Counted from the stretch's first letter, positions 35,284 to 57,899 are shown. The stretch: DNA of 64,000 nt from an uncultured delta proteobacterium (GCA_963746605.1 CAVVCH010000051.1:6136-70135), one strand, 5' to 3'. Numbers and translations: made by a program. Notes: generated by a model from the letters alone, not told the origin.

Positions 35284-35319
35284 GCTGACTCCTTGGCCCT
35301 GTTTTTGTCTATTTTCGTA

Positions 35320-37023: not shown

Positions 37024-37032
37024 GATCGACCC

Positions 37033-37884: not shown

Positions 37885-38006
37885 GATTCCGTATTCCTCT
37901 TTTTTACAATAAACGTATGATCTGAAACCCCCCCCCAACCCTCCTTGAACCAAAGGGAGAAGCAAGGGGGGGATTTATGAATGATTTAAATTGGAACTAT
38001 TTTTGT

Positions 38007-39329: not shown

Positions 39330-39467
39330 ATCCTCTCCTCGTAGCCATCAAAAAAGTTATGGTGAATGAATCAATAGCCCTTTCTTAATAAAAGCCGGTT
39401 AAAAGAAAAAATCACCTCCTTCGATCTTCCGGTCATATCAATAGTTGCCGTAATGAATCCCTTCTGA

Positions 39468-40790
39468 TTATGACTTTTCGGGAAGCGCCTGATCAATCAG
39501 TTCAATCAGATCAATCAGTTTCATGGAGCTGCCCAGGGCCTGAGATCCTTGGTTTAAGTTAAAATGGCAGAAGGGGCAGATGGAGATCATGTGCTCGGCC
39601 CCGGTATCCAGCCCTTCCTGGATACGGAGGGCGGCATTGCGCTGGGCCCAATCCGGGAACCCGGTCATGACCCCGCCGCCGCCGCCGCAGCAGAAGGAAT
39701 TGGCCCGGGTCCGTTCCATTTCCACCAGCTCAATACCGGGGATGGCCTTCAAGAGGTCCCGGGGAATATCATAAAGGCAATCCTCTTCGTTCAGATTGAT
39801 ATAGGCCCCGGGCCAGAGCTGGGAGCCGTCTTCGTCCACCAGGTATTTGGTCAAATGCCGGCCCGCGTGGCAGGGGTCATGGTAGGTGACTTTCATGGGG
39901 AGCGGTTGGGAAAAAGTCAATCGGCCGGCCTGGTGCAGTTCGCTGAGAAACTGCGTCACATGGATGACCCGGATACCCTGCATCAGCTCCTCGTATTCCC
40001 CGGCCAGGGAGTAATCCTTGAGGATGGCCCGGTAGCAGCCGGCACAGGCGGTGACGATCGTCTCGACCCCCCGGGTTTCACGCAGATTTTTGAAGGTCTG
40101 CAGATTGACTTCGGCCACCCGTTTAAAGGCCTCGGCATCGCCCAAACGCATGGCCGTGGAGCCGCAGCAGAGTTCGTTTTCGCCCAGGATGCCGAAATCC
40201 ACTCCCAGTTTCTGAAAGACCGAGGCCGTGGCCTGAGGCAGGACCCGGGCCGGGAGGTTGTAGGCGCCGGTGCACCCCACAAAGTACAAAACCGGAGCCG
40301 GTTCCTTATTGATATCCTTGATGGGCCGTTTTTCTTTCTTGAAGGACCGGGTCCAATCCCAGCGGACCCGCCTGGGGCCCTGGTAGGGATTGTCGTAACT
40401 CTTAAGCGACTGGGCGATGACCTTCTGCTGGGGCAGGGGGCCGGCGCCGGCCTCCACGGCTTTCCGCCGCAGGGCTTCAAAAATTTCCGGGATATGGGGC
40501 TTGTGGTCAAGCTGGCACTGGGTCTGGCAACCGGCGCAGAGGGTGCAGCGGTAAACGGCCTCGGCCAGGTCGTCGTCCCATTCCAGTTCGCCGCTGAGAA
40601 TGCCCCGGGCAAAGGCGATTTTCCCCTTGGAGGCCATAAAACCTTCAAAGCCGAATTCCGTCCCCGAGGGGCAGATTTCCCGGCAGCGGGAGGGGGGGCC
40701 GTATTCGTAGGTTACTTTACAGGTCCCGCAGGCCGTGCAGCGCCAGATGGCGTCTTCCAGTTCTTCCAGCGAAGGGATATTCCAATGCAT
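39468..40790 (-). CDS. (Fe-S)-binding CCG-domain protein (GlcF/HdrD-like)
   Basis: CTACGTC..CREICP and CTLCAGCQTQC ferredoxin motifs; LCCGS, YHDPCHAGR and FCCGGGGG CCG domains. Confidence 0.9.
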   Translation of the reverse strand: MHWNIPSLEELEDAIWRCTACGTCKVTYEYGPPSRCREICPSGTEFGFEGFMASKGKIAFARGILSGELEWDDDLAEAVYRCTLCAGCQTQCQLDHKPHIPEIFEALRRKAVEAGAGPLPQQKVIAQSLKSYDNPYQGPRRVRWDWTRSFKKEKRPIKDINKEPAPVLYFVGCTGAYNLPARVLPQATASVFQKLGVDFGILGENELCCGSTAMRLGDAEAFKRVAEVNLQTFKNLRETRGVETIVTACAGCYRAILKDYSLAGEYEELMQGIRVIHVTQFLSELHQAGRLTFSQPLPMKVTYHDPCHAGRHLTKYLVDEDGSQLWPGAYINLNEEDCLYDIPRDLLKAIPGIELVEMERTRANSFCCGGGGGVMTGFPDWAQRNAALRIQEGLDTGAEHMISICPFCHFNLNQGSQALGSSMKLIDLIELIDQALPEKS

Positions 40791-40805
40791 ACCAACCTCC
40801 AAAAC

Positions 40806-40836
40806 CTAGCCAAAAATATTTTGAAATTTTTGGCTG
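40806..40836. repeat. CTAG-anchored palindromic element, copy 4
   Basis: CTAGCCAAAAATATTTTGAAATTTTTGGCTG, just upstream of the RBS of the GlcF-like gene. Confidence 0.85.
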
Positions 40837-40933
40837 AAATAAAAACACTCATAGATTCAAAGATGCAACGGTCGGGTCTCAGGTCTTACGTCATTGTTAG
40901 AGACAAATTCTAAGAACAATGGATGCCAGAGTC

Positions 40934-42364
40934 TTATATGCCCAGTTTCCCGGGATTCATAATGTCGTTGGGATCCAGGAGTTTTTTCACCTGCCTCAGC
41001 AGGGAAAGATACCCCGGGTGGGCCCGCTGATTGATCTCCCGGGCAAAGTCCACCGGGGGCTTGTAGGGCATGCCGCCGTGATCCAGATCGACCTTGAGAC
41101 ACTCCACGATGGCCTGTCGGGCGTTTTCCGTTTCCTCGGGACTTTTCTTATTGAAGGGAATCATGGCCCGGAGCATACCGTAGTGGACACCCCGGTACAT
41201 GCTCATGCGAACCGAAGGAGAGAGGTTATGCTCGATCAGGATTTTTTTCCAGTCGTTATAGACCGGGGCCCATTTGTTGGCCGGCGTAAAAGTGCCCGGC
41301 CAGGAAATGCCCGCGCCGCCCTGTTTGCAGTAGTTTTTGGTGGAGCCGACAATTTGGCTGGGTAACTGGGTCCGGGCCCGCAAGGCCTCTTCCGGGTATT
41401 GGGTTACCTGAAGGGAGGTCCCCTTTTTCTTCTCCTCCGCGACCACCGTCTCCCAGATTTCTTCCCGGGCTTCCTTTTCCTTTTCGGTGAAGGAGTTGGT
41501 ATTGGCGAAACTGAACCATTCCGGGGCGGAATCGGGTTTGGGTTTGAAGGGATACGGGATGGGCACCTGGGCCAGCCACCAGGAGACGGCCGTCAGGTCG
41601 TCACAGATCTCATAAGTGCTCAGATTCATCATGTAGGAGACCATGTCTTCCACATTCTCGCAGGAGACGGTGAAGACCTTCAAGACCGGCGGAATGGGAT
41701 GAACGGTGATTCCCAGTTTGGTGACCACGCCGGTGCTTCCCAGCCAGCCTTTGAACAGGCCGTCCAGTTGGGGCATCGGCAGCACGCTGTGCCAGGCCTC
41801 GGCGTTGATGGCGCAGGAACCCACCCGCACCAGCTCGCCGGTGGGCAGGACCACTTCCATGCTGGTAATCTCCTGGCTGTTCAAGCCGTAGCGGGCGTTC
41901 AATCCGCCAATCCCGTGGGAAATGGCGCAGGAGGAAACAGAGGCCGAAGGGGGGCCCACCGGCCAGCCGAAACGCAGGTTATGTTTATAGAGAGCGCTGG
42001 CCAACTGGCCATGGGAGACCCCCGGTTCAATCACGGCATAATGGGATTCGGTATCGATTTTGAGAATCTTATTCATCCGTTTCAGATCCAGAATAATGCC
42101 GCCCCGTTCCGGAATGGTCAGACCCCCGATGTTGGTTCCGGCCGTGTAGGGCACCACGGGGATCTTCTCCCGGTTGGCCAGTTTCAGGACCGCCTGAATC
42201 TGCTCCACGGTGGTGGCCATGACCACATAGTCCGGCAGTTTGGGTTGCACGAAGGACATGTCGTAGGAATAAGCATAACGAATGTGTTTGGCCGCGGTGG
42301 CATTCTTGGGGCCCACGATAGAGGCCAACTCATTTAAAACAGCATCTTTGCTGGTGACATGCAT
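40934..42364 (-). CDS. FAD-binding oxidoreductase (GlcD / D-2-hydroxyacid dehydrogenase, VAO/PCMH family)
   Basis: PYTAGTNIGG, LDLKRMNKIL, VIEPGV, TGVVTKL and C-terminal LDPNDIMNPGK. Confidence 0.85.
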   Translation of the reverse strand: MHVTSKDAVLNELASIVGPKNATAAKHIRYAYSYDMSFVQPKLPDYVVMATTVEQIQAVLKLANREKIPVVPYTAGTNIGGLTIPERGGIILDLKRMNKILKIDTESHYAVIEPGVSHGQLASALYKHNLRFGWPVGPPSASVSSCAISHGIGGLNARYGLNSQEITSMEVVLPTGELVRVGSCAINAEAWHSVLPMPQLDGLFKGWLGSTGVVTKLGITVHPIPPVLKVFTVSCENVEDMVSYMMNLSTYEICDDLTAVSWWLAQVPIPYPFKPKPDSAPEWFSFANTNSFTEKEKEAREEIWETVVAEEKKKGTSLQVTQYPEEALRARTQLPSQIVGSTKNYCKQGGAGISWPGTFTPANKWAPVYNDWKKILIEHNLSPSVRMSMYRGVHYGMLRAMIPFNKKSPEETENARQAIVECLKVDLDHGGMPYKPPVDFAREINQRAHPGYLSLLRQVKKLLDPNDIMNPGKLGI

Positions 42365-42484
42365 AAAATCCTCCTTTGTTTCAGGAATGAAGGCTACGTA
42401 AGCGTCTTTACCAGGGCGGACCCCGGATCGCCTTCCGGGCCGGATGCCCAGTCCAGTCACCCGGGTCCGATGAATAAACAAGGA

Positions 42485-44002
42485 CTATTTTCGGCCGATG
42501 GTCCCCTCCCAGGTGCTGACCTTGGTCTCTTTTTTCTCCTCTTCGCCGAACCAGCGGGAGGTGACACATTTGGATTCCGTGTAGAAGGCCACCCCGTCTC
42601 GGCCCATGACATGCAGGTCGCCAAAAAAGGACTGCTTGTGTCCGGAAAAGGGGAAGTAGGAGATGGGCACGGGAATGCCTACATTGACCCCGACCATACC
42701 GGCGTCGGTCCTCCGGGTGAATTCCCTGGCGTAATAGCCGTTTTGAGTAAAGATGGCCGAACCGTTGGCAAAGGGGCTGGCGTTCATGATGGCCAGGCCT
42801 TCTTCGAAATCCTTGACCCGTTTGATACAGGTCACCGGACCGAAAATCTCGGAATCGCCCACGCTCATCCCCGGTTTGACATGATCGAGAAGGGTGGGGC
42901 CGATGAAGTGACCGTTTTCAAACCCGGGGACGACGATGTCCCTTCCGTCGAGAACCAGTTCTGCGCCCTCGGCGACACCCTTGTTGATCCAGTCGATAAC
43001 CGATTTCTTATGCTCCGCGGAGACCACCGGTCCCAGTTCCGTATCAGGATGGTAGGCGCATCCGACCTTGCGCTCCTTGGCGAACTTGATCAGGTAACCC
43101 AGGAATTCGTCGGCGCAGGCTTCTTCCACGCAGAGGACCGGCAAGGCCATGCAGCGCATGCCGGCGCAGCCGAAGGTCGAATTGATGATCCCTAAAGCGG
43201 AGCGCTCCAGTGCGGCATCGCGCATGACCAGGGCGTGGTTTTTGGCCTCGCAGAGGGCTTGAACTCTTTTGCCGTGGGCGGCGGCCGTGGCATAAATATG
43301 GCGGCCCACCGCAGTGGACCCGACGTAAGAAATCCCCCGGACGTCGGGGTGCTTGAGAAGCAGCCCCGCTTCATCGCGGCTGCAGGTCACCAGGTTCACC
43401 ACCCCGGGGGGCATCCCGGCTTGAATGAGCAGCTCCAAAACCCGCACCGCGGTCTGAGGCGTCAAACTGGCCGCCTTGAGGACAAAGGTGTTGCCCATGG
43501 TGATACACAGGGGAATCATCCAGCCGAAGGGGATCATGGACGGGAAGTTGAAGGGAACGATCCCCGCAAAAACGCCGATCGGCTCGCGGTACATGACAGT
43601 ATCGTGCCCGGTGGAAACGTTCATCAGGGCGTCGCCCTGCATGAGCACGGGAGCGGCGCAGGCCAGCTCCACCACCTCGATGCTTTTAAGGACATCCCCC
43701 CGGGCTTCATCCAGGTTTTTGCCTAACTCCATGGAAACCGAAAGAGTCAACTCCTCCAGATGGGCCTCCATAAGCTGACGCAAACGGAACATTAAGTCGG
43801 TTCGCTGTTGCACGGACTTGCTCGACCATTTCGGGAAGGCCGCTTTAGCCGCCGCCACGGCGCTTTCCACTTCGTCAACGGTACAGCAAGGGGCCTCCGC
43901 CATAATCTCTCCCGTGCTGGAATTCGTCACCGGCATACATTTGCCGGTACTGGATTCCCTCCACTCGTTGTTGACACAATACTTTAAATTTTTGACTGCC
44001 AT
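42485..44002 (-). CDS. mmsA: (Methyl)malonate-semialdehyde dehydrogenase, CoA-acylating
   Basis: GIVPFNFPSMIP, SYVGSTAVG, EAKNH, GCAGMRCMA catalytic Cys, VGVNVGIPVP, FSGHKQSFFGDLH..GRDGV. Confidence 0.9.
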   Translation of the reverse strand: MAVKNLKYCVNNEWRESSTGKCMPVTNSSTGEIMAEAPCCTVDEVESAVAAAKAAFPKWSSKSVQQRTDLMFRLRQLMEAHLEELTLSVSMELGKNLDEARGDVLKSIEVVELACAAPVLMQGDALMNVSTGHDTVMYREPIGVFAGIVPFNFPSMIPFGWMIPLCITMGNTFVLKAASLTPQTAVRVLELLIQAGMPPGVVNLVTCSRDEAGLLLKHPDVRGISYVGSTAVGRHIYATAAAHGKRVQALCEAKNHALVMRDAALERSALGIINSTFGCAGMRCMALPVLCVEEACADEFLGYLIKFAKERKVGCAYHPDTELGPVVSAEHKKSVIDWINKGVAEGAELVLDGRDIVVPGFENGHFIGPTLLDHVKPGMSVGDSEIFGPVTCIKRVKDFEEGLAIMNASPFANGSAIFTQNGYYAREFTRRTDAGMVGVNVGIPVPISYFPFSGHKQSFFGDLHVMGRDGVAFYTESKCVTSRWFGEEEKKETKVSTWEGTIGRK

Positions 44003-44042
44003 ATCTTATCCTCCCGCGTGTGGTCTTAGTTATTTTATGGAA

Positions 44043-44966
44043 TTATTTAATCTCTAACGAACGCTTGGTTATGCCGGTCGGGGGTTGGGAAGCCAGATAC
44101 AGCGGACTGGTCCCCACCCGCTTCAAAATAACCCCCCGGTTTTTCATCAGCGGATCTCCCTCGGCTACCACCCGGGCCCCCGGGTTCAGGAGCAGGTGCC
44201 AGTGACTGGAAGACCAGAACTGGGGGAATTCCTGGGGGTCGAAAGGCGCGGTTTTAGTGACCTCAGCCAGATAGTTGCCGACCTCGAGCAGGTCGTTGCC
44301 CATGGCCACCGCGGCGGCCAGAGGATCTTTCTGAATCATGCATTCCAGGATCAGCCGATGGGATTTGCGGACGCCCTGATAGAAATCGACCCCCAGACGC
44401 AATTCGGTCTTCAGGGAGCTGAGTATGTTGTCCACAAAATCGATGATCAGATTGAGCAGGGTATTGTCCACCATCCGGGCCAGGTAACGGTGAAAGCCGA
44501 TTTCTTTGGAGACCTCGTTCTCGCTTTTGGTGACGGTGCGGCCGATGATCTTTTTGAGGTTGAAGATGTCTTTATCCGTACCCCGGGTGGCGGCAATCCC
44601 GGCCACCGTGGGCTCGATGAGGTAGCGGACCATGGTGATTTCTTTGAGGGAGACTTTCTCGAAGCGCAGGAAATTGATCAGGCTGTTCAGGGTGGTCCGC
44701 ATGTCCACGTCGGCCACAAAGGCGCCGCCCGAAGTCCCTTTGCGGATTTCGATCAGGCCCATGGCTTCCAGGACCCGCAGGGCTTCGCGGAGGGTGGCCT
44801 TGCTTACTCCGAACTGGAGGATCAGTTCTTTTTCTGAAGCCACCCGTTCACCGGGTTTCAGTTGGCCGGAAAGGATGGCGTCCCGGATCTGATCGATGAT
44901 CTGGTCCGAGATCTTACGGTTTTTACTGGCCGCCTGGAACAAGGAGGTCCCTTCCTTAACAATCAT
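44043..44966 (-). CDS. GntR/FadR-family transcriptional regulator
   Basis: LKPGERVASEKELILQFGVSKATLREALRVLEAMGLIEIRKG wHTH followed by an FCD domain. Confidence 0.9.
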   Translation of the reverse strand: MIVKEGTSLFQAASKNRKISDQIIDQIRDAILSGQLKPGERVASEKELILQFGVSKATLREALRVLEAMGLIEIRKGTSGGAFVADVDMRTTLNSLINFLRFEKVSLKEITMVRYLIEPTVAGIAATRGTDKDIFNLKKIIGRTVTKSENEVSKEIGFHRYLARMVDNTLLNLIIDFVDNILSSLKTELRLGVDFYQGVRKSHRLILECMIQKDPLAAAVAMGNDLLEVGNYLAEVTKTAPFDPQEFPQFWSSSHWHLLLNPGARVVAEGDPLMKNRGVILKRVGTSPLYLASQPPTGITKRSLEIK

Positions 44967-46900: not shown

Positions 46901-47054
46901 AAATCCGAATTCGAAGCACGAAATCCGAAACAAATTCGAATAACCGAAATTCAAATGACCGAAACCAGAACCTTTAAGCGCGGGGCATGTTTTGAATTTT
47001 GAAAATTTGATCATTTCGATTTGTTTCGGATTTCGTGCTTCGAGTTTCGAATTT
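46901..47054. repeat. Long inverted repeat of 7-bp units (AAATCCG / TTTCGGA family)
   Basis: AAATCCGAATTCGAAGCACGAAATCCGAAACAAAT...ATTTGTTTCGGATTTCGTGCTTCGAGTTTCGAATTT. Confidence 0.85.
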
Positions 47055-47058
47055 CTTC

Positions 47059-48291
47059 ATGTCTCCCTGGATGATTAGGCGGACTACCATCGTGGGGCCT
47101 CATTTGGAAAACCCTTCGATCGCCATCTACACCGGGCACGGCAGTTCCCATTCCTGGCTTTGGTTCGTCGATATCTTCGAGCGGGCGGGCCTGACGAACC
47201 TGGCCTTTTTCGATGAGAAGGACCTCAAGGCCGGGAAGCTGACCGGGAGTCAGGTCCTGGCCGTCTCCGGGGGGGACACCTTCGCCCTGGCCGAAGGCCT
47301 GGGCCGGGAAGGGGCCGCCGCCTTGGAGGCCTGGGTCCGTGGGGGGGGGCTTTATCTCGGCTCCTGCGCCGGCGCCTACCTTCCTTTGCGCTCTTCCAAA
47401 GAACCGCTGGACCTGTTTAACTTCGTGGAAGCCAAAATAAGCAACCTGACCGCCATCCTGCCCACCCCTCAAAAATTCAAAGAAAAGTTCAGCCAGCCTT
47501 ACGGCTGTTCCTTCATCTATCACCCGGTCCGGGAGGCAGTCCGCATCTCCGGCTATGGCCATCCCCCGTTTTCCGGGACAGACGACTTCCCGGTACCCCT
47601 GTACGGAGGCCCGGCCATGATCCCCCGGGGGGAGGTCGAAACCCTGGCCTGGTACAGCGGCTTTACCGAAAAAACGGTCTTTCTGATGGATCCGGAATTG
47701 GCCCGGGAAACCCTGATCGGGAAGTCGGCGGTGATTCGAAAAAGGCTGGGCGCAGGCTCCTTCTATTTGTTCGGCCCCCACCTGGAACATCCCCATTATC
47801 GGAAGGCCAACCAACTGGTCATCGATACGATCCGGTTTGAAAAGAAACCGGACCAAGGGCTGAGGGATTCCGAGTGTGAAAGGGAAGTGATCCTGGATAA
47901 CCGGCGGATCGGGGAATGGCTCCGGGCCCTCAAACGGGAATTGAGCAACGCCCGGATTGTGGTGGCCGGCATCGAAAATGAACCGATTTTCTGGCAAATC
48001 GGTCGCAAGACTTACGAACCCCTCAAAATGCGGGTCTTTCTGGAGGCCCTCTGGAAACGCCTGCCTACGATGGAAAAAGCCGGTCCACTGGTTATTCCCG
48101 GCCGGTGTCGGGGTCTGATCGAAAAGGCCGAGGACCTGACCGGGAAGGTGCGGCGCCTGAAAAATCGATTCGATCGGAAACAGGAGACCGCCCCGCTGGC
48201 GGAAGAGATTTTTACTCTTTTAAAAAGATTGGCTCCGGATTTTCTCACGGTTTATTTTAGCACGAATAAGGCCGTCGGCCATGCGCTGTAA
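47059..48291 (+). CDS. BPL_N-like (class I glutamine-amidotransferase fold) protein with helical C-terminal extension
   Basis: IAIYTGHG, LAVSGGD, GGGLYLGSCAGAY, YGGP and FGPHLEH motifs; start uncertain. Confidence 0.7.
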   Translation: MSPWMIRRTTIVGPHLENPSIAIYTGHGSSHSWLWFVDIFERAGLTNLAFFDEKDLKAGKLTGSQVLAVSGGDTFALAEGLGREGAAALEAWVRGGGLYLGSCAGAYLPLRSSKEPLDLFNFVEAKISNLTAILPTPQKFKEKFSQPYGCSFIYHPVREAVRISGYGHPPFSGTDDFPVPLYGGPAMIPRGEVETLAWYSGFTEKTVFLMDPELARETLIGKSAVIRKRLGAGSFYLFGPHLEHPHYRKANQLVIDTIRFEKKPDQGLRDSECEREVILDNRRIGEWLRALKRELSNARIVVAGIENEPIFWQIGRKTYEPLKMRVFLEALWKRLPTMEKAGPLVIPGRCRGLIEKAEDLTGKVRRLKNRFDRKQETAPLAEEIFTLLKRLAPDFLTVYFSTNKAVGHAL

Positions 48292-49153
48292 CAAAACCCT
48301 GCCGCTGTTTCTGATGGCCCAGTTCCTGATCCTGGGCGGATGTCTGTTGTTGGCCCGGCCGATCAACGCCCGCGAGATTCCTCCCGACTCCTCCTGGTTC
48401 ATCGACCTGAGCCGTTTTTCCCAGTCCGCCCATGGGACCCTGAATTGTGAAGCCTGCCATGGGAACATGAAAGAATCGGGAAAAGCTCACCCGGAGAGCA
48501 ACGATCCTCAATTTCTTCGCCGGGAAGCTACCCGGGTCTACGACTACGGCCGCTGCCGATCCTGTCATCGCCTAGCCTATGAACGCAGCCGCTCCGGGGC
48601 TCATGCCCAGGCCCTGCAGAAGGAAAAGGAAGGCACCGCTTCAAGAAAAGCGGCTGATCCCAAGAAATATCCGGCTCCGACCTGCGGGAATTGTCATTCC
48701 TCCCATTATGAAAAGGCCCATCGATCCCGTCTGGCAATCGGTCGGGCGATGACCGACACCTGCGGGGCCTGCCATCCGGCTCAGGCGGCCTCCTATCTGG
48801 AAAATCCCCATGGTAAAAAGGCCGTCTACCTGGGGAAAGTCAGCTCGGCCTATTGCACCGACTGCCACGGGGCACATTCGTGCCGATCTCTGAAAGATCG
48901 AAAGACCGCCCTGGACGCCTGTCAACGCTGTCATCCTCAGGCCCGGGAGCAGTTGACCGGCTTTGTGATCCACGCCACCGATCAGGGCTTGACCGAAAAA
49001 GACCGGGATAAAAAATACCGGGTCGATCTGATCCGGACGGTGACCCTGGTCATGCTGGTGCTGGTCCTCGGGCTGGTGGTTTTTTTCTATGGGCATAGTT
49101 TTATGTGGCTTCTGCGGGAGCTTCACGAAAAATTGAAAAGGCGTAAATCATGA
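48281..49153 (+). CDS. Hexaheme c-type cytochrome with signal peptide and C-terminal TM helix (CbcL-like c domain)
   Basis: Six CxxCH (CEACH, CRSCH, CGNCH, CGACH, CTDCH, CQRCH); TM ending FFYGHSFMWLLR. Confidence 0.9.
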   Translation: MRCNKTLPLFLMAQFLILGGCLLLARPINAREIPPDSSWFIDLSRFSQSAHGTLNCEACHGNMKESGKAHPESNDPQFLRREATRVYDYGRCRSCHRLAYERSRSGAHAQALQKEKEGTASRKAADPKKYPAPTCGNCHSSHYEKAHRSRLAIGRAMTDTCGACHPAQAASYLENPHGKKAVYLGKVSSAYCTDCHGAHSCRSLKDRKTALDACQRCHPQAREQLTGFVIHATDQGLTEKDRDKKYRVDLIRTVTLVMLVLVLGLVVFFYGHSFMWLLRELHEKLKRRKS

Positions 49154-49851
49154 CCCCGGCTCGACAGGAAAACCTGGAGGTAATTCGTTTCCCGGTTATT
49201 CACCGTCTGCTGCACTGGGTCATCATGGTGGGTTTTATCGGTCTGGCCCTGACCGGCTTTTCCCTGAAGTTCAGTTCATGGACCTGGGCCCAATGGATCG
49301 TTTCCCTGCTGGGCGGTCCCGGCTGGACCGGTTACTGGCACCGCTGCTGGGCGGCCATCACTTACAGCGGCGTGATCGTTCACCTGGGCTGGCTGGTCTA
49401 TTTCAAGACTGTGCTGAAGGGGCGCCTCACCGGCCCGCAATCGGCTTTTCCCCGCGGTCAGGATGTCAAGGACCTGCTGGCGCATATAAAATATTTTCTG
49501 GGGCAAGGACGGCCGCCGCAATTCAATCGCTATGCCTACTGGGAAAAACTGGACTACTGGGCCATGCTGGTGGGCATGAATACCATGGGTCTGACCGGGC
49601 TGGTATTGTGGTTCCCGTTGTTTTTCAGCGGTGGCCTGCCCGGGTATTTTATCAATCTGGCCCGGATACTTCACTGGTACGAAGCCCTGCTGGCCGTGGC
49701 CTTAAAATTCGTGGTCCATGTGGTTACCGCCCATCTGCGTCCGGAAGTTTATCCCCTGGATAAAGCCATCTTTACCGGGAAGACAACGTTGGAGAGGATG
49801 AAACACGAGCATCCAGGGGAATGGGAAGAAGTCATAAAGGGAAGAAACTAA
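49150..49851 (+). CDS. Cytochrome b membrane subunit (FdnI/HyaC-like)
   Basis: RFPVIHRLLHW..LALTG, WHR, FNRYAYWEKLDYW, ILHWYEA..VHV; ATGA overlap with the hexaheme gene. Confidence 0.85.
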   Translation: MTPARQENLEVIRFPVIHRLLHWVIMVGFIGLALTGFSLKFSSWTWAQWIVSLLGGPGWTGYWHRCWAAITYSGVIVHLGWLVYFKTVLKGRLTGPQSAFPRGQDVKDLLAHIKYFLGQGRPPQFNRYAYWEKLDYWAMLVGMNTMGLTGLVLWFPLFFSGGLPGYFINLARILHWYEALLAVALKFVVHVVTAHLRPEVYPLDKAIFTGKTTLERMKHEHPGEWEEVIKGRN

Positions 49852-49853
49852 CC

Positions 49854-51416
49854 ATGGGCTTCTTTAAGCAAAATAGCATTATTCACAATGCCGAAAGGCA
49901 GGGAAAGGCGTCGAAATCGTCATTCCGGCGAAACCTGCCCCGGCAGGTTGTAAGTCGGGGGCCGGAATCCAGGGGCAATCCCCCCCTTGGGCTCCTGCTG
50001 ATCGGCGTTATTCTAGCCGGCATCTTGTGCGCCGGATCCGGCTGGGCGGCGGAGCCGGTTTCCATGCCCCTAACGGTTGAGGGGAAGGAACGGGTTTGTC
50101 TCGATTGCCATCGCCGGCCGAATATCCAGAGCAACGAAGGGGCGTTTACTTCTCAGGCCCTGTGTTTCGAATGCCACGGCCGGGAGGGAATAAAACGAAA
50201 GTGGGGCGAAACCGCCGTTTCTCTAAAGGTAACCCCCGAATCCTTTGCCGGCAACCGTCACCGGCTCGTGGCCTGCATCGCCTGTCATATCGATGTGGCC
50301 CGATCCCCCCATCGGACCCGAGTGGGAGCCCAATGCCTTTCTTGCCACACCGTCCACGGAGAAGGAACCGCCCATGACCCGCATCTCCGGGTGAGCTGTC
50401 AGGCCTGCCACCGGCAGTCACCTGCGGTGACCTTAAATAAAACTACCGACCGGGTGGTCCTCTCCCGGCTTAATGACCAGGGTGCTCCTTTAGCCTTGAC
50501 GGACCACCGGCTGCCGGATACCCGGGATCAGAAATTCTGTGAGCGCTGCCATGTGCCGGGGAACAAGGTCGGGGCGGCCGCGGCGGTGCTGCCCGCCAAA
50601 AGCCTTCTCTGCCTGCCCTGCCACTATGCCCCGATCGCCGTCGGGCATTCTCTGTTCTGGGCGGCCTTGGTTGTTTTTGGCCTGGGTCTTTTGTTGACCG
50701 GGATGTTCTGGATCAGCGGCAGCGTGCAGGGAGAGGAGAAATCGGTCCACCGGAAAATCGCCCTCGGTTCCGAAGCGGCCTGGTCTATCCTGTTCTCCCG
50801 GCAATGCTGGACGATTCTGAAAACGTTTTTCTTGGATGTGCTGCTTCAGCGGAGGATTTTGCAGGAGAGCGTCCGGCGCTGGTTCCTCCATTCCCTGATT
50901 TACTACGCCATCCTGTTCCGGTTCGGACTGGCCCTGTTCACCCATTTCGCCTACTTCTTCAAACCCGGCGGCGCCTTGGCCTACGCCCTGATCGATAAAA
51001 ATCATCCTTTTGTGGCCCTGACGAACGACCTCCTGGGCCTGTTCATCGTCTTGGGCTTGGCGGCCGCGCTCTTCCAGCGATTCGTAGTGAAACCACCCCA
51101 CGTGGTCAGTGAGTGGAAGGACAATTGGGCCCTGGCCATCATCGGAGCCCTGGTTCTAATGGGTTTTTTACTGGAGGGGGCCCGCATTCTAGTTACCCAG
51201 GTCCCGGCCGAAAAGGCGGCCTATTCGTTCGTGGGCTATCTCCTTTCATTGCTCTTGGCCGTTTTTCCGGCGGACTGGCCGATCCTCTATGTCTACTTCT
51301 GGTATGCCCATGCCGTCCTGGGAGCGCTGCTGGTGGCCTACCTCCCCTTCGGGAAATTAAAGCATATTTTCGTGACGCCGCTGAGCCTGGTGTCGCAGTA
51401 TAAAAAGAAGGATTAA
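49854..51416 (+). CDS. Heptaheme cytochrome c fused to a NarI/DsrM-like cytochrome b domain
   Basis: Seven CxxCH (CLDCH, CFECH, CIACH, CLSCH, CQACH, CERCH, CLPCH) followed by TM helices with RRWFLHSLIYY and WYAHAVLGALLVAYLPFGKLKHIF. Confidence 0.85.
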   Translation: MGFFKQNSIIHNAERQGKASKSSFRRNLPRQVVSRGPESRGNPPLGLLLIGVILAGILCAGSGWAAEPVSMPLTVEGKERVCLDCHRRPNIQSNEGAFTSQALCFECHGREGIKRKWGETAVSLKVTPESFAGNRHRLVACIACHIDVARSPHRTRVGAQCLSCHTVHGEGTAHDPHLRVSCQACHRQSPAVTLNKTTDRVVLSRLNDQGAPLALTDHRLPDTRDQKFCERCHVPGNKVGAAAAVLPAKSLLCLPCHYAPIAVGHSLFWAALVVFGLGLLLTGMFWISGSVQGEEKSVHRKIALGSEAAWSILFSRQCWTILKTFFLDVLLQRRILQESVRRWFLHSLIYYAILFRFGLALFTHFAYFFKPGGALAYALIDKNHPFVALTNDLLGLFIVLGLAAALFQRFVVKPPHVVSEWKDNWALAIIGALVLMGFLLEGARILVTQVPAEKAAYSFVGYLLSLLLAVFPADWPILYVYFWYAHAVLGALLVAYLPFGKLKHIFVTPLSLVSQYKKKD

Positions 51417-51532
51417 TTTTTTTTACCGCAGACTCACACGGACAAAGATAGGACCAAAGGCGAATTCCCACCGTACAGCTTGGTCGGTGGCCATAATGAG
51501 CTTTTCTTTATCGTTTGTTGTTAGGTGATATA

Positions 51533-52921
51533 ATGACTGAAGAAGTTCCGGTTGAAACCAGCGTTTCAACAATCCCGCCGGGGCCGCAGCCCTCTGAATC
51601 CGTAGAACCTGAGACGGAAACGCGTCCAGAGCCGACTCGTGAACTCCCCCTTTCCAACCTGTCTGCCGCCCGATTGATCCAGCTTGAGGCCTGCACCCGC
51701 TGCGGGGAATGCCTGAACTGGTGTCCGGTCCACGACCAGGACGCCCGGGAACAGGTCATCCCCCGGAAGAAGATCGCCGATTTCCTGCATATCGTGAAGA
51801 CCCAGCAATCCCTCTTGACTCGGATCATGAGGCAGGAAAAAGTGAGCGATCCGATCAAAAGGCTGTTGGCTACCGTATTCCGCTATCGAGAGATCAATCA
51901 AAACGAAATCGATGATTTTGTTCGCAACTTGTATGAGTGCTCCACCTGCGGGCAGTGCCAGATCGTCTGCCCGGCCAACATCGATACGGTCAACCTCTGG
52001 GAGGATATCCGGCGTCTGGTCGTTTCGGCCGGTTACGGGCCGCTGGAGACGCAGAAGGTGCTGGTCAAAAGCGTCAAGGCCTATGATAACCCCTGGCAAC
52101 AGCCCCGGGCAGCCCGCACCAAATGGGCGCGTCGGGCGCAAAAAGACAATCAGATTGCCGCCCCGCCCCGGGAGATCAAGAAGACCAGGGCCAAAGTCCT
52201 GCTCTGGTTGGGCTGTACGGCGGTCTATGATGTGAACGTGAAGCAGATCGCCATCAGCACCATCAATATCCTCGAAAGCCTGGGGATCGATTACGGCTGC
52301 CTCGGCGGCGACGAGAAGTGCTGCGGCAGCGTGCTCCTGCGTATGGGAGACGCGGAATTCGAACGTATCGCCGGCGACAACATCAAACAGCTTAACGAGC
52401 TGGGCATTCAGACCCTGGTCAGTTCCTGTTCCGGCTGTTTCAAGACCATCAAGGAAGACTATCCCAAGGTGGGCAAGCTGAATTTCGAGGTGCTCCACAC
52501 CGTGGAATTCCTCCGGCGACTGCTGGAGGATAAGAAGCTGCCCTTTGTTCAACCGTTGGAAAGAAAGGTCACCTACCACGATCCCTGCCACCTGGGACGG
52601 GCCAGCGGCGTCTTTGAGGATCCCCGGGTACTGATGAAGGCCATCCCGGGACTGGACTTGATCGAAATGCCCCGGAGCGGCGAATATTCCCGCTGCTGCG
52701 GCGCCGGCGGCGGACTGAAGGCCGGCTATCCGGACATCCAGAACAAGATGGCCCAGGAGCGGGTGCGCGAGGCCGAAGGCACCGGCGCCAGCGAACTGAT
52801 CTCGGCCTGCCCCTTCTGCTATGCCGGGCTCCAGGTGGGGATCAAGGCCCTGGATTCGCCCCTGGTCATGAAAGACCTGAGCTGCCTGGTCGAGGAGGCA
52901 CTGATTAAAAAAGCCGATTAA
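51533..52921 (+). CDS. (Fe-S)-binding CCG-domain protein (HdrD/DsrK/TmcB-like)
   Basis: CTRCGECLNWCP, CSTCGQCQIVCP, KCCGS, YHDPCHLGR and RCCGAGGG. Confidence 0.9.
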   Translation: MTEEVPVETSVSTIPPGPQPSESVEPETETRPEPTRELPLSNLSAARLIQLEACTRCGECLNWCPVHDQDAREQVIPRKKIADFLHIVKTQQSLLTRIMRQEKVSDPIKRLLATVFRYREINQNEIDDFVRNLYECSTCGQCQIVCPANIDTVNLWEDIRRLVVSAGYGPLETQKVLVKSVKAYDNPWQQPRAARTKWARRAQKDNQIAAPPREIKKTRAKVLLWLGCTAVYDVNVKQIAISTINILESLGIDYGCLGGDEKCCGSVLLRMGDAEFERIAGDNIKQLNELGIQTLVSSCSGCFKTIKEDYPKVGKLNFEVLHTVEFLRRLLEDKKLPFVQPLERKVTYHDPCHLGRASGVFEDPRVLMKAIPGLDLIEMPRSGEYSRCCGAGGGLKAGYPDIQNKMAQERVREAEGTGASELISACPFCYAGLQVGIKALDSPLVMKDLSCLVEEALIKKAD

Positions 52922-53110: not shown

Positions 53111-53393
53111 GTGAACAAAAGGGTATCGGTGGCCGAGGCCAAGAATAAACTCCCGGCCATTATCCATGAAGTGGAAAAGGGTTCCATTGTGGAGATCACC
53201 CGTTACGGCCGGGCCGTAGCCTTTGTAGTCCCCCAGAAGGATTATGAGCGACTGCAGGAGAAAGGCGGGGGATTTTGGGAAGCCCTGATCAGGGTCAGGA
53301 ATATCATGAATGCCGAGGGGATAGTTATGGAGGATCGCGATTTTTCCGACCTCCGGGACTCCTTCGCCGGGACGTCAGGTCGATTTGGATTGA
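53111..53393 (+). CDS. Phd/YefM antitoxin (indel near 53365)
   Basis: VSVAEAKNKLPAIIHEVEKG..EITRYGRAVA Phd motif; shifted frame ends PGRQVDLD-TGA just before the vapC ATG. Confidence 0.8.
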
Positions 53394-53812
53394 ATGAAGT
53401 ACCTTTTAGACACCAACCTGATTTCCGAATTGATTAAACCCAATCCGGACCGGGGTGTGAAGGAGAAGTGCCGCCAGATACCGACGGGACCTGGCTACCG
53501 CCGCTCCGGTCTGGCATGAATTGCAGTACGGTTGTTACAGATTGCCTCATTCCCGAAAAAGGGAACTATTGGAATTGTTTCTGGAAGAGGTCGTTTCAAA
53601 CAATCTGCCTATACTCCCCTATGATGAACAGGCTGCCCGCTGGCATGCCCTGGAAAGGGCGCGCTTATCCTTGACGGGGCAGCCACCTTCCTTTGCCGAC
53701 GGCCAGATAGCCGCCATCGCCGTCACCAATGGGCTGACGCTGGTGACCCGAAACAATGACGATTTCCAATTCTTTCACCGGATTACACCTGGAAGATTGG
53801 CACACCTCTTAG
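53394..53812 (+). pseudogene. vapC: VapC PIN-domain toxin, frameshifted as given (about 2 indels)
   Basis: MKYLLDTNLISE, WHELQYG, FADGQIAAIA, LVTRNNDDF; C-terminus TGLHLEDWH in a shifted frame. Confidence 0.85.
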
Positions 53813-53886
53813 TCGGGAAAGAATAAAAATGGCGTAGCCATCCGGTACTTATTTTGATACCGGATTCAGATTAAAAAGGACCGGTC

Positions 53887-54857
53887 ATGAAAAACAAATT
53901 ATCAACAATCGGACTGGCCGTTTTGCTTCTCATCCTGCTGGTCCAGGGGTGCCCCGAAGCGCCGAAAAAAAACCGATCCGGATCGCCTACTTGCAAAGTG
54001 ACATCCACCATCTCCCTTGTTGGATCGCCCTCGAAAAAGGGTTCTATTCCCGGGAAGGGCTGGAGGTGGAGGTGGCCGGGGTGTTCAAAGCCGGGCCGGA
54101 GTTGATGAGCGCCTTTGCGGCCGGGGCCCTGGACGCCGGTTACGTGGGGGAAGCGCCGGCCACCACGGCAGTGGCCAACAAGGCCGCCCGGGTGGTGGTA
54201 TTGGCCCAGGTCAACACCGAGGGCTCGGCTGTGGTGGTCAGGAAAGAGGGGCCGATTCAAAAAGTGGCCGACCTGGCGGGCAAGAGCGTGGCCATCCCCG
54301 GCCATGCTACCGTTCAGGATTTTCTCTTAAGAAGGGCACTGAAGCTGCACAAGCTGGACCCCGGGGCGGTACGGACCATCGTGATCAAGCCCCCCGAAAT
54401 GATCGGGGCCCTGCGGACCGGCCAGGTGGACGGCTTCATCGCCTGGGAACCGTACCCGGCCAAGGCCCAGACCTTGGAGATAGGACGGGTGCTGGCCCAT
54501 TCCCGGGATATCTGGAAGGATCATCCGTGCTGCGTTCTGGCGGTGGACGGGAAGTTTTTCACCGCCCAGCCGGACCAGGCCAAAAAGCTGGTCCGGGCCC
54601 ACGTGAAGGCCACGGATTTCATCCACCAGAACCGGGAGGAAGCCGTTAGAATCGGAGTCAAGTACACCGGCATGGATGAAAAAACGGTGAACCTGGCCAT
54701 GCAGAACGTCCATTACACCTACCAACTCAGCGTGGAAGCGGAAAAAGAATATGTGGATTTCCTCTCCCTGATGAAATACATCAAGGTGGAGAGCCCCCAG
54801 GCCTTCATCAGGGAATTTCTCAATTTGGAAATCCTCCCTGAAATCCTGAAAAAATGA
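53887..54857 (+). CDS. SsuA/TauA/NMT1-type ABC substrate-binding protein (indel in the A8 run at 53965-53972)
   Basis: Lipoprotein-like signal LLVQGC; IRIAYLQSDIHHL, GPELMSAF..LDAGYVG, DLAGKSVAIPG, VDGFIAWEPY and HPCCVL. Confidence 0.85.
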
Positions 54858-55609
54858 AAGTTGAAAAATTTCTATTTCCCCTGATCCTGCTGTTGATCTG
54901 GCAGGGGCTGTCTTCCGGGGCGATCATTCCGGCCTACAAGCTTTCCTCTCCGGTGGAGATTCTTTACGGCTTCGGGGGGCTGGCCTTCGAGGGCATGCCG
55001 CCGGGGCACCTACTCCATAAGCATATCCTGTACAGCCTCGTTCGGGTCGGGCTGGGATTCGGAGCCGCCACCGCCTTGGCCGTCCCGTTAGGCTTGCTGA
55101 TGGGCTGGTCCGGAAAAATCCGGCGCTTTTTCCGGCCCGTCCTGGAAGTGATCCGGCCCATTCCGCCGCTGGCCTGGATCCCAATCGCCATCCTCTGGTT
55201 CGGCATCGGGATCCCGAGTGCGGCGTTTATCATCTTTCTGGGGGCCTTTTTTCCGATTTTGCTGAACACCATATCGGGCGTGCTGGCCATCAACCCTACG
55301 CTGGTGGAGGCGGCTCTATCTCTCAAAGCCCGGGAGAAGGATATCTTCTTCAAAGTACTTTTACCTGGGTCGATTCCCTCCATCTTTGTGGGCCTGCGGA
55401 TTGCCGTCGGCATCGGCTGGATGACGCTGGTGGCGGCGGAGTTTACCGGGGTCAGGGAGGGATATGGTCTGGGGTATATGATCATGACCGCCCGCGATAT
55501 CCAGCGACCGGATGAAATTCTGGCCGGCATGCTGGTCATCGGGCTGATCGGTCTGCTGATCGACGTGCTGCTGCGCAAGGTCGAAACCAGGGTCATCCCC
55601 TGGAAATGA
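54854..55609 (+). CDS. SsuC/TauC-type ABC permease
   Basis: RPIPPLAWIPIAILWFG, GAFFPILLNT, PGSIPSIFVGLR, VAAE. Confidence 0.9.
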   Translation: MKVEKFLFPLILLLIWQGLSSGAIIPAYKLSSPVEILYGFGGLAFEGMPPGHLLHKHILYSLVRVGLGFGAATALAVPLGLLMGWSGKIRRFFRPVLEVIRPIPPLAWIPIAILWFGIGIPSAAFIIFLGAFFPILLNTISGVLAINPTLVEAALSLKAREKDIFFKVLLPGSIPSIFVGLRIAVGIGWMTLVAAEFTGVREGYGLGYMIMTARDIQRPDEILAGMLVIGLIGLLIDVLLRKVETRVIPWK

Positions 55610-55623
55610 AAAAGGAATAACCC

Positions 55624-56382
55624 TTGAGTCTGGAGATGGTCCATCTGCACAAGGTTTATGCCGCCAGACCCGGCCACTCGGAACTGGCCGTCCTGGAAGA
55701 CATCAACTATCAGGTGGCCGACGGGCACTTCGTGACCATCGTCGGACCGAGCGGCTGCGGGAAGACGACCCTCCTGCGGGTAATGGCCGGGCTGGAACAG
55801 GTCACCAGTGGAAGAGTGCTTTTACGGGGAGAAGAAATTACCGGACAGGCGGGAAAAGTCGGGCTGGTTTTTCAGGAATATGCCTTGTTCCCCTGGCGGA
55901 CCACTCTGGAGAATATCGAAATGGGTCTGGAAATTCGAGGGCTCCCCAGGCCGGACCGGAAGGCTGCCGCCCTGGAGTACGTTAAGCTTTTCGGCCTGAG
56001 TGGGTTCGAGGGGCACTATCCGCGGGAGCTTTCCGGCGGCATGCAGCAGCGGGTGGCCATTGCTCGGACCCTGGTCTTGAATCCGCGAGTCGTCCTGATG
56101 GACGAACCCTTTGCCTCTCTGGACAGCCAGACGCGCAACGCCCTCCAAGAATTTCTGGTCGACATCTGGCAGCAGCGGAACGAGACCATCCTCTTCGTTA
56201 CCCATAACGTGGACGAGGCCGTGTTCCTGAGCGACCGGATTGTGGTCCTGTCACAACGGCCGTCCAGGATCATCCGGGATTTCGAGGTGAATATCCCCAA
56301 GCCGCGGGACCGCACCAGCAACGCCTGCAATGATTTGCGAAGGGAAGTCCTGAAGGTGCTGGGGGAACAGAAGATTTTGTAA
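55624..56382 (+). CDS. SsuB/TauB-type ABC ATPase
   Basis: GPSGCGKTT, VFQEYALFPWRT, LSGGMQQRVAIAR, LMDEPFASLD. Confidence 0.9.
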   Translation: MSLEMVHLHKVYAARPGHSELAVLEDINYQVADGHFVTIVGPSGCGKTTLLRVMAGLEQVTSGRVLLRGEEITGQAGKVGLVFQEYALFPWRTTLENIEMGLEIRGLPRPDRKAAALEYVKLFGLSGFEGHYPRELSGGMQQRVAIARTLVLNPRVVLMDEPFASLDSQTRNALQEFLVDIWQQRNETILFVTHNVDEAVFLSDRIVVLSQRPSRIIRDFEVNIPKPRDRTSNACNDLRREVLKVLGEQKIL

Positions 56383-57395
56383 TGCTGGAATTAAAACGCC
56401 TGGTCACCGAACTGCAGAGCCTCGGGCTGCGGATCGAAAATGAAATCCTCAGCCGGAAAGGAGGGGCCGGTCCGGCCGAAGGGGGAAACCTCCTCATCGG
56501 CAGCCGCCCGGTTTCCGTTCCCATGGGCAGCCCCTTTGTTGCCCGCTCTCCATACACCTTGAGAAAAGTCAAGGAAGAATTTCGGATCTGCCGGAACAAC
56601 AAGCCGCTGGTCCTTGCCGAAACAATCCATCCGCCGCGTTTTTATCAGGAGCGGACAGCGGAGGGGATATCCTATCAACAGATCGCCCTGCTGCATGGGC
56701 GAGATTGCCTGGCCACGACGGTACGGCAGACCTGCCTCCATTGGGCCCGGGGGATTCCCTGCCGGTTTTGCGGGATCGAGGTTTCCCTGCAAAAAGAGTC
56801 CACCCTAACGCTGAAAACTCCGGAGCAGTTGGCCGAAGTAGCCTCTCGCGCCAGGGACATGGACGGCATTCGACATGTCGTATTGACCACCGGGACCTGC
56901 GGAGTCCCGGAAAAAGACATCGACCAACTGGCCCGGTGCACGGTCACCATTAAAAAGGCGGCGAGCCTACCGATCCACGTCCAGTGCCTGCCTCCGCAGA
57001 AACCCGGTGTTCTGGAAACCCTGAAAGAGGCCGGAGTGGATACCATCGGCCTTCATATAGAGAGTTTCGATGAAGCCGTGCTAGCTGAAACGGCCCCGGC
57101 CAAGGCGGTCATTGGCTTGAAGGGTTACCTGCGGGCCTGGAAGGAAGCGGTAGAACTGTTCGGGCCCAACCAGGTCAGCAGCTTTCTCGTAACGGGATTG
57201 GGTGAAAAGAAAGAATCCATCCTCCAGGGAAGTGCCCTGCTGGCCGATCTGGGAGTCTATCCTTTTATCGTTCCCTTGCGACCCATCCCCGGCTCTTTAA
57301 TGGAAAATGCCCGGCCGCCCGATCCGGCCTTCATGGCAGGGGTCTATGAAGCGGTGGCCGAAATTCTGAAAAACAGGGGGACTGGCTTCCTCTAA
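56382..57395 (+). CDS. MSMEG_0568 / NitD-family radical SAM protein (C-terminus shifted by an extra G near 57378)
   Basis: ELQSLGLR..RKGGAGP, IALLHGRDCLATTVRQTC..CRFCGIE (Cx8Cx2C), NQVSSFL, YPFIVPLRPIPGS; shifted frame gives SLAGCVRCGACSALPFYE. Confidence 0.85.
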   Translation: MLELKRLVTELQSLGLRIENEILSRKGGAGPAEGGNLLIGSRPVSVPMGSPFVARSPYTLRKVKEEFRICRNNKPLVLAETIHPPRFYQERTAEGISYQQIALLHGRDCLATTVRQTCLHWARGIPCRFCGIEVSLQKESTLTLKTPEQLAEVASRARDMDGIRHVVLTTGTCGVPEKDIDQLARCTVTIKKAASLPIHVQCLPPQKPGVLETLKEAGVDTIGLHIESFDEAVLAETAPAKAVIGLKGYLRAWKEAVELFGPNQVSSFLVTGLGEKKESILQGSALLADLGVYPFIVPLRPIPGSLMENARPPDPAFMAGVYEAVAEILKNRGTGFL

Positions 57396-57445
57396 AAGCC
57401 TGGCCGGCTGTGTCCGCTGCGGGGCCTGCTCGGCCCTGCCATTCT

Positions 57446-57899
57446 ATGAACGCCCGGCGGAAGCGCTTATCTGTCATCCGGTCCGGACCCGAGAAGAGGG
57501 AGAACAGGGCCGCGGCCATCCGTCACCGGGTGTTCGTGGAGGAACAGCGTCTGTTTCCGGAAACCGACCGGGACGAGAATGACCGCAAGAGCATTCATTT
57601 GGTGGCCGAGATGGAAGGGAGGATTGTCGGCACCGTGCGGGTCTTCCCCGTGGAAAACAACGGCCGCTGGATCGGCGGCCGACTGGCCATCCAAAAGAGA
57701 CTTTCGCTTCAGCGGTGCCGGGGAGCGCCTGGTCCGGGAGGCGGTGGCCGCTGTAAAGCAGAAAGGCTGCACCTGTTTCACCGCCCACATTCAACAGGAA
57801 AACGTCCCTTTTTTCACCCGCCTGGGCTGGAAACCGGTCGGACCGGTCTTCGAATATCGGGGAAAGCCCCACCAGCGCATGGAAGCCGATCTTACCTGA
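57446..57899 (+). CDS. MSMEG_0567 / Sll0786 / NitE-family GNAT acetyltransferase, frameshifted; probably fused to the radical SAM
   Basis: IRHRVFVEEQRLF..DRDEND..IHLVA..VGTVRV..WIGGRLA, then GAGERLVREAV..FTAHIQQENVPFFTRLGW..PHQRMEADL. Confidence 0.8.

Follow-up and report, generated by a model that had tools for sequence, protein, structure and literature searches.

The 64,000-nucleotide (nt) stretch of DNA analyzed here, referred to as the window (CAVVCH010000051.1:6136-70135 of assembly GCA_963746605.1, from an uncultured delta proteobacterium), contains at positions 53887 to 57899 what is, taking our best explanation as a whole, likely a four-gene operon in which an ATP-binding cassette (ABC) importer of the NitT/TauT family is translationally coupled to one gene for a radical S-adenosylmethionine (SAM) domain joined to a GNAT domain. 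Positions are counted from its start, and features lie on the plus strand unless stated. Judged by curated thresholds, the two domains belong to the NitD and NitE families of the Nit1C cluster. The finding is real but largely ordinary, the fused layout being already common; added here are an assembly-error explanation for the gene's broken reading frames, conserved importer and redox partners, an unlinked yet retained NitF-like gene, and a His-Pro-Cys-Cys (HPCC) motif in the binding protein.

The Nit1C cluster, known since 2005 (Podar et al., PMC1199592), has a core comprising NitD (MSMEG_0568/Sll0785), the GNAT protein NitE (MSMEG_0567/Sll0786), and NitF (Sll0787). Full-text literature searches returned no paper on a fused or transporter-linked form, and the literature on TIGR04043, MSMEG_0568, sll0786, COG2516, and methanogenesis marker 2 held nothing on function.

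A single radical SAM-GNAT polypeptide

The radical SAM open reading frame (ORF) as read in frame 0 scored 353.6 bits against the NCBIfam model TIGR04043 (cut-off, 303.7), and the final 30 positions of that model, including GCVRCGACS, were found in the +1 frame just past the apparent stop. Two GNAT pieces in two different frames matched TIGR04045 at positions 12-82 and 83-147, each broken half alone reaching only ~56 bits, under the cut-off of 68.45. With one base removed at each of three sites (Table 1), the repaired fusion scored 388 bits on TIGR04043 over the full model (positions 1-354) and 120.5 bits on TIGR04045; these two scores were obtained with a hand-joined version of 505 amino acids (aa) that has one extra residue at the third junction (IQKRDF), which left the searches unaffected. 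A preliminary description of this DNA, made from the sequence alone, had proposed a NitD-like radical SAM protein, a NitE-like GNAT, and an ABC importer at this position, and all are present, the radical SAM and GNAT domains with family scores over the curated cut-offs. Its single chain of about 505 aa holds as one polypeptide, although the clean repair gives 504 aa, and the two corrections that it considered enough to join the domains were too few, as three are required.

A search with the fusion recovered 3,408 proteins at an E value of ≤0.001 among 8,000 candidates scored. Nearly all of the best 120 of these were 502-540 aa long with Radical_SAM and GNAT Pfam domains, and many of the 120 carry Joint Genome Institute (JGI) names that give both TIGRFAM families. 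The top homologue, P0001, from a Deltaproteobacteria metagenome-assembled genome (GCA_016219065.1), was 80% identical to the fusion over 100% of its length. Single-chain proteins joining TIGR04043 and TIGR04045-like domains, a search for which had been proposed in the preliminary description, are hence not rare, with more than 3,400 found.

The radical SAM cluster motif of the fusion is C118-x8-C127-x2-C130 (nt 56733-56771), the auxiliary cluster cysteines are C343, C346, C349, and C364, and the GNAT domain spans approximately residues 364-504 of the repaired protein. All of these cysteines are kept in the window; six (C118, C127, C130, C343, C346, and C349) are invariant in 43 relatives, and C364 is at least 90% conserved among them. 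In an AlphaFold model of P0001 (predicted local distance difference test [pLDDT], 91; predicted TM-score [pTM], 0.91), the nearest fold to the radical SAM domain was predicted to be HydE, and the modeled GNAT domain was nearest to SACOL1063/YjcF/ElaA, small GNATs without known function. Motif and modeled fold together point to membership in the radical SAM superfamily.

Distribution and phylogeny of the fused form

In a maximum-likelihood tree of the radical SAM domain, the window grouped with loci L004 and L005 (support, 100/100), and this group was nested in a 33-row Desulfobacterota clade. Canonical Nit1C NitD proteins, represented by Klebsiella and Methylocystis plasmids (L082 and L081), fell on a separate long branch and were ~39% identical to the radical SAM domain of the window. 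The fused, nitrilase-free layout is the normal form in sulfate-reducer-type anaerobes and is widespread in Desulfobacterota and found in some Bacillota; related carriers include members of Desulfobacula, Desulfotignum, and Desulfatiglans. Compared with the fused proteins of anaerobes, which are 57-80% identical to it and of which P0001 is an example, the window protein has the same architecture, length, and transporter neighbors, and nothing essential differs; the window has three one-base insertions and lacks an adjacent flavoprotein or NitF-like gene.

Two further observations concern relatives of the fusion. Copies in genomes of the same genus (G041-G043 vs G047/G044) were ~60-66% identical to P0001, whereas the window copy is 80% identical to it, though P0001 comes from another genus of the family; this pattern suggests paralogous lineages or within-family transfer. 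Archaeal homologues (ANME-1/Methanophagales-type; L040, L043, L048-L055, and L060) are unfused NitD-type radical SAM proteins whose genes directly follow a COG1900-like gene with CBS domains (a weak methanogenesis marker 16 match), and the genomes with these loci also hold an Mmp2/NitF-like gene.

Conservation of the importer link

The ATPase stop codon overlaps the radical SAM start codon in TAATG at 56380-56384, and the binding-protein and permease ORFs overlap by 4 nt; both overlaps had been claimed in the preliminary description and are in the sequence. By tblastn, ~30 of 69 related loci have the three transporter genes no more than ~8 kb from the radical SAM gene, on either its upstream or its downstream side; these loci span several clades and include one from a Bacillota genome. 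The ATPase gene lay directly upstream of the fusion in all six family-level relatives examined, and independent metagenome gene calls gave the same transporter/fusion order. When we started instead from the binding protein, two of the three homologues sampled on long contigs adjoined a radical SAM-GNAT gene. Mapped on the tree, presence of the transporter required at least five gains or losses, a count as low as which was reached in 0 of 500 label shuffles. The ABC link is therefore conserved, whereas the preliminary description had allowed that it might not be.

An alternative is that the transporter is a mere neighbor by shared ancestry, a general sulfonate, taurine, or nitrate importer without a functional tie to the fusion. 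The binding protein does pass only a broad subfamily cut-off, the transporter is absent from over half of the related loci, and the third sampled binding-protein homologue, which adjoins no radical SAM-GNAT gene, weighs against the proposed coupling. However, a bystander would not readily account for a link that recurs in several separate clades with so few changes on the tree, in both gene orders, and in both Bacillota and Desulfobacterota, nor for the translational coupling in the window and the invariant HPCC shared by the linked binding proteins. We thus consider the mere-neighbor explanation unlikely.

Origin of the frameshifts

The reading frames of the fusion gene and of the binding-protein gene are broken at three sites and one site, respectively (Table 1). 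Very probably these breaks reflect not decay but single-base errors in the consensus of a noisy metagenome assembly, probably one made from long reads, because related contigs are in frame, invariant residues are kept, and unrelated genes in the window are also frameshifted. Public contigs from four runs were in frame at each of the three fusion sites that they cover. The X8 contig (578 nt, with 19 mismatches over 487 nt) has one base fewer at 57381, 57509, and 57694; the X4 and X26 contigs have one base fewer at 57509 and 57498, respectively; and the X24 contig has one base fewer at 57698 and is apparently one base shorter around 57368-57373, the latter by a by-eye reading of 14 unaligned bases. 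Deleting A57698 gives IQKDFRF, fitting the consensus IQK(E/D)FRF. In an alignment of 43 sequences, the repaired fusion matches all 94 invariant columns and 81 of the 82 near-invariant ones. Its identity to P0001 is 75% in the piece preceding the first frameshift and 88-90% in the three pieces that follow.

In the binding-protein gene, a lipoprotein-type signal peptide, MKNKLSTIGLAVLLLILLVQGC, begins at 53887 in a different frame from the ORF at 53949-54857. If the A8 run is read as A9, signal peptide and mature protein are joined in one frame of 323 aa, as long as the homologues, and relatives read ...PEA(A/P)(D/K)KKPIRIAYLQ in a single frame across the break. At least three of the four break sites lie in homopolymer runs. 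Furthermore, relatives assembled in 30-40 contigs show split copies (G042, G043, and a second copy in G045), whereas the frame is open, at 507-569 aa, in relatives whose assemblies run to hundreds of contigs. A tblastn screen for frameshifts with the proteins of neighbors was robust only for the three radical SAM-GNAT sites and one site in an arginase-fold gene; it missed short pieces, which were read by eye.

Several points weigh against assembly error. The contigs that cross the three fusion sites are 92-97% alike and are thus from other strains, those at least 95% alike (X3, X4, and X6) leave a gap from 57347/57355 to 57788 and so cross none of the three sites, and the best public run holds only 42% of the genome's sampled words. 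Three breaks within 320 bp, together with one in the binding-protein gene of the same operon, would also fit recent inactivation. The operon could thus be a real pseudogene cluster in which all four frameshifts are true mutations, a possibility to which four breaks in one 4-kb operon, an unlinked NitF-like partner, and the lack of any public contig of ≥95% likeness that spans the sites to contradict it lend some weight. Recent inactivation nonetheless seems quite improbable, given that each related contig covering a site is in frame, that few-contig relatives show similar breaks, that the sites are mostly homopolymers, that frameshifts extend to unrelated genes of the window, and that no invariant position carries a substitution, with the downstream pieces more conserved than the upstream one.

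Two separate genes as in canonical Nit1C clusters, which encode NitD and NitE separately, with the radical SAM gene ending at 57395 and the GNAT gene starting at an ATG at 57446, are highly improbable: the stop and the ATG exist, but the ORF ending at 57395 lacks the last 30 TIGR04043 positions with their invariant CxxCxxC, the ORF from 57446 still shifts frame near 57695, and neither a stop nor an independent GNAT start occurs between the domains in any of the 43 fused relatives aligned. Programmed frameshifting was ruled out by the three separate sites, the in-frame relatives at each, and the breaks in unrelated genes. For annotation, consensus errors of this kind mean that the assembly splits real genes at homopolymers and that one fused coding sequence should be called rather than a truncated radical SAM gene followed by GNAT fragments.

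Other irregularities of the window were also recorded. A LivK-type (Peripla_BP_6) binding-protein gene at 37960-39300 on the minus strand has at least three frame changes (38.0-39.3 kb), and an arginase-fold gene (cluster c13; 26196-27170, minus strand) has a frame change near 27134-27166. The vapC-like gene changes frame between its N terminus (MKYLLDTNLISE...) and its C-terminal part, and public contigs differ from the window by one base at 53360 and 53776 in the vapBC pair. In near-identical strains, short-read contigs are interrupted on either side of window positions 57356-57790, and one X3/X6 contig departs from the window right after the GNAT stop (57899), so that the downstream DNA of other strains differs.

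Relationship to Nit1C

Searches for the nitrilase and three other Nit1C genes found none of them, and the locus therefore does not qualify as a Nit1C cluster. Absences in the source genome are bounded by its completeness (4.56 Mb, 94% complete). Within the window, no other Nit1C genes were found. In the genome, there was no match to the Nit6803-family nitrilase (NitC, TIGR04048), and NitB (MSMEG_0572), NitG (MSMEG_0570), the flavoprotein NitH (MSMEG_0569), and the Pnap_2097 protein were not found; TIGR04046 matched only at chance level (21.7 bits), TIGR04042 had no match, and tblastn with Klebsiella Nit1C proteins recovered no NitB, NitG, or NitH. No nitrilase over the family cut-off was present in 40 related genomes, and no nitrilase, NitB, NitG, or NitH gene lay next to the fusion in 67 related loci. 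A canonical Nit1C cluster hidden elsewhere in the 94%-complete genome was accordingly rejected with respect to NitB, NitC, NitG, NitH, and Pnap_2097.

The core has nevertheless kept its third member. An intact NitF-like, AIR-synthase-type gene lies on another contig (C59:24876-25826), unlinked to the fusion, and its product scored 286 bits on TIGR04049, below the cut-off (321), and reached 288 bits with the methanogenesis marker 2 model, TIGR03267. The NitF-like gene immediately follows the fusion in 32-35 related loci; of 30 related genomes in which the two are not neighbors, 26 carry a single strong copy of it at another place. Among 14 control genomes, equally strong matches occurred only in Synechococcus elongatus and two methanogens. 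The anaerobe form is thus a NitD-E-F core without NitB, NitC, NitG, and NitH rather than a two-enzyme minimal pathway, and in this bacterial family the third partner, a NitF/Mmp2-like protein of the PurM fold, is unlinked. The earlier statement that the rest of Nit1C is missing accordingly stands for NitB, NitC, NitG, and NitH and fails for NitF. On C59 (24536-26700), the NitF-like gene stands alone after a 116-aa ORF and is followed by ~0.9 kb without a clear ORF.

Compared with canonical clusters, the window resembles Nit1C in domains that pass its family cut-offs, in the CX8CX2C and C-terminal CxxCxxC motifs, and in a PurM-fold partner encoded in the genome. Unlike Nit1C, its two domains are fused and have an ABC importer and an HdrD/cytochrome complex as partners in place of the nitrilase, NitB, NitG, and NitH; its radical SAM domain belongs to a separate clade, and its NitF-like protein falls under the TIGR04049 cut-off and scores equally on marker 2. 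On the Methylocystis iwaonis plasmid (L081; NZ_CP143315.1, 1-5132), the canonical Nit1C cluster is divergent from four genes encoding a phosphosulfolactate synthase, an adenylosuccinate-lyase-family protein, an argininosuccinate lyase, and a pyridoxal phosphate (PLP) enzyme, a set that presumably resembles bacterial coenzyme M biosynthesis.

Binding protein and candidate ligand

The binding protein scored 185.7 bits on the SsuA_fam model TIGR01728 (cut-off, 163.5) and matched PF13379 (E = 2.5e-45), and it fell below the equivalog cut-offs of TauA (TIGR01729, 85 vs 304 bits) and SsuA (PRK11553, 69 vs 299 bits). The best named NCBIfam matches of the permease were SaoP, TauC, and NtrB, and those of the ATPase were of the SaoA and TauB types, all below their cut-offs. 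Residues 192-195 of the 302-aa binding-protein ORF form an HPCC motif that is invariant in 25 of 25 module-linked orthologues. In pairwise alignments, HPCC stands opposite PKK of the nitrate-binding NrtC domain and YCC of PDB entry 3UN6; aligned TauA lacks Cys-Cys at this position, and the SsuA alignment ends before the motif. A model of the binding protein (pLDDT, 95) best matched 3UN6 (TM-score, 0.83/0.86), a Staphylococcus aureus binding protein crystallized with zinc (entry title: zinc bound), with SsuA, TauA, and CmpC close behind. The "SsuABC-type" label of the preliminary description is therefore weak, since only the broad SsuA_fam cut-off is passed and HPCC is not found in aligned TauA.

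A plain sulfonate as substrate is doubtful in view of the invariant HPCC and of a closest structure that is a zinc-crystallized Cys-Cys binding protein, and we infer that the ligand may be thiophilic instead. According to a 2022 preprint by Haft (10.1101/2022.07.06.499078), few binding proteins have a Cys-Cys pair, and the pairs in SaoX and SaoB are interpreted there as metal binding. That the Cys-Cys pair would line the ligand pocket is predicted only from alignment to NrtC and 3UN6, which weighs against the explanation as a whole. It is a speculative and rather improbable extension that the anaerobe module, comprising the HPCC importer, the HydE-like radical SAM-GNAT protein, the HypE/PurM-like partner, the FMN-reductase-like flavoprotein (FMN, flavin mononucleotide), and the HdrD-like/cytochrome complex, imports and processes a metal- or metalloid-bearing or organometallic compound or a reactive sulfur species; if it did, the NitD/NitE/NitF substrate could for the first time be approached directly, through the binding protein. 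Among eight related loci, no riboswitch or RNA leader that could name the ligand reached the gathering score of any Rfam family.

The importer belongs to the same NitT/TauT family as SsuABC, TauABC, and the SAO transporter SaoX/SaoP/SaoA. SaoA and SaoP are its best named matches and SaoX is second best; both SaoX and 3UN6 carry Cys-Cys, and the 3UN6 pair aligns with that of the window. In contrast to SAO, the window permease has neither the Cys nor the Sec gate residue, and the neighboring genes included neither a MerB-like gene nor any other gene of the SAO system. Membership in the SAO system was rejected on scores below the equivalog cut-offs (SaoX, 98/300 bits; SaoP, 175/295; SaoA, 250/360).

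Proposed function

The gene identities, the fusion, the cluster motifs, and the conserved links are observed, and they allow a conditional model to be drawn. The importer would deliver a small ligand held by the Cys-Cys pocket, and the HydE/BioB-like barrel, with its CX8CX2C motif and four-Cys auxiliary cluster, would start radical chemistry on it. The GNAT domain may supply or transfer an acyl group from acyl-CoA, and the PurM-like partner may perform ATP-dependent activation, with low-potential electrons coming from the neighboring HdrD/cytochrome complex or from the flavoprotein of relatives.

HydE, which matures [FeFe]-hydrogenase, belongs to the BioB/PylB class of radical SAM enzymes; it has a TIM barrel, and its substrate is a small molecule. 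It offered the best PDB folds for the modeled radical SAM domain (3IIZ, 5FEP, and 7O1T), with predicted matches at E values of ~3e-7 and TM-scores of 0.47-0.49 on the target. The window protein differs from HydE in its low identity (17-19%), in CX8CX2C in place of CX3CX2C, in its fused GNAT domain, and in the lack of a hydrogenase context. Elp3, which modifies tRNA U34, shares the order of a radical SAM domain followed by a GNAT domain, and in Elp3, acetyl-CoA itself is the radical substrate, a possible mechanistic analogy; unlike Elp3, the window places its fusion in a context of small-molecule import. An Elp3-type radical SAM-KAT protein was rejected, being absent from the 50 best listed PDB fold matches and giving no PDB sequence match.

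In anaerobes, then, the NitD/E/F core is stripped of nitrilase and tied to a dedicated importer. A purifiable binding protein that can be screened for its ligand is a practical route to the substrate, and with an invariant Cys-Cys, a HydE-like fold, and a redox partner of the HdrD type in view, fewer hypotheses need to be considered.

Gene neighborhood

The neighborhood is larger than the minimal import, radical-modification, and acetylation pathway of the preliminary description, as it includes an HdrD-like/cytochrome complex and the genome retains the NitF-like gene. Redox genes annotated by Pfam and NCBIfam (clusters c7, c10, c15, c6, and c3) are co-linear with the transporter and the radical SAM-GNAT gene in 24 of 42 well-flanked loci. 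By ORF clusters in these 42 loci, the HdrD-like/cytochrome complex was linked no less frequently than the transporter, in 24 and 18 loci, respectively, by a count that undercounts the transporter. The conserved order from neighbor-ORF clustering is (ferredoxin), short AOR-like, BPL_N-like, multihaem cytochrome c, cytochrome b, haem-c::NarI-like, HdrD/TfrB-like CCG, binding protein, permease, ATPase, (FMN-reductase-like flavoprotein), radical SAM-GNAT, and AIR-synthase-like. The flavoprotein gene is part of the neighborhood in many relatives; neither it nor the AIR-synthase-like gene is adjacent in the window or in the two closest relatives.

Table 1. Features of the operon, its frameshift sites, and neighboring genes in the window
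Feature	Position	Strand	Remark
Substrate-binding lipoprotein, NitT/TauT family (NMT1/SsuA-like)	53887-54857	+	ORF 53949-54857, 302 aa; repaired, 323 aa
A8 homopolymer with binding-protein frameshift	53965-53972	+	Separates signal peptide from mature protein
ABC permease, BPD_transp_1 type	54854-55609	+	PF00528, E = 2e-28; zero cysteines
ABC ATPase	55624-56382	+	PF00005, E = 6e-33
Radical SAM-GNAT fusion gene (NitD-NitE type)	56382-57899	+	504 aa after three one-base corrections
Radical SAM ORF as read, frame 0	56382-57395	+	Stop at 57393-57395
Frameshift site 1, A5 and G5 runs	57369-57380	+	One surplus base in window
Frameshift site 2, GGG run	57507-57509	+	One surplus base in window
Frameshift site 3, AAAAGA	57693-57698	+	One surplus base in window
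BPL_N-like protein	47035-48291	+	Conserved upstream redox module (47035-52921)
Multihaem cytochrome c	48281-49153	+	Redox module
Cytochrome b	49150-49851	+	Redox module
Haem-c::NarI-like membrane protein	49821-51416	+	Redox module
HdrD/TfrB-like CCG iron-sulfur protein	51515-52921	+	Redox module
VapB/VapC-like toxin-antitoxin pair	53111-53826	+	Between redox module and transporter; frameshifted; outside conserved module
MtaA-like methyltransferase	31527-32546	-	
Corrinoid protein	32659-33429	-	
LIV-type ABC transporter	within 26000-44966	-	
Second HdrD-like CCG protein	39468-40802	-	
GlcD-like FAD oxidase	40934-42481	-	
Methylmalonate-semialdehyde-type dehydrogenase	42485-44002	-	
GntR regulator	44043-44966	-	

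A long near-perfect hairpin lies at 46908-47046, between the short AOR-like and BPL_N-like genes; Rfam searches of 44-59 kb of the window gave only chance matches to miRNA-like precursors, on this hairpin. In other species, a second context was observed in which an MtaA-like methyltransferase, an arginase-fold protein, a methylmalonate-semialdehyde-type dehydrogenase, a flavin adenine dinucleotide (FAD) oxidase, and a CCG protein are encoded directly upstream of the radical SAM-GNAT gene, together with a LIV-type transporter. In the window, the genes of this second context lie on the minus strand at 26000-44966, 10-30 kb upstream of the operon.

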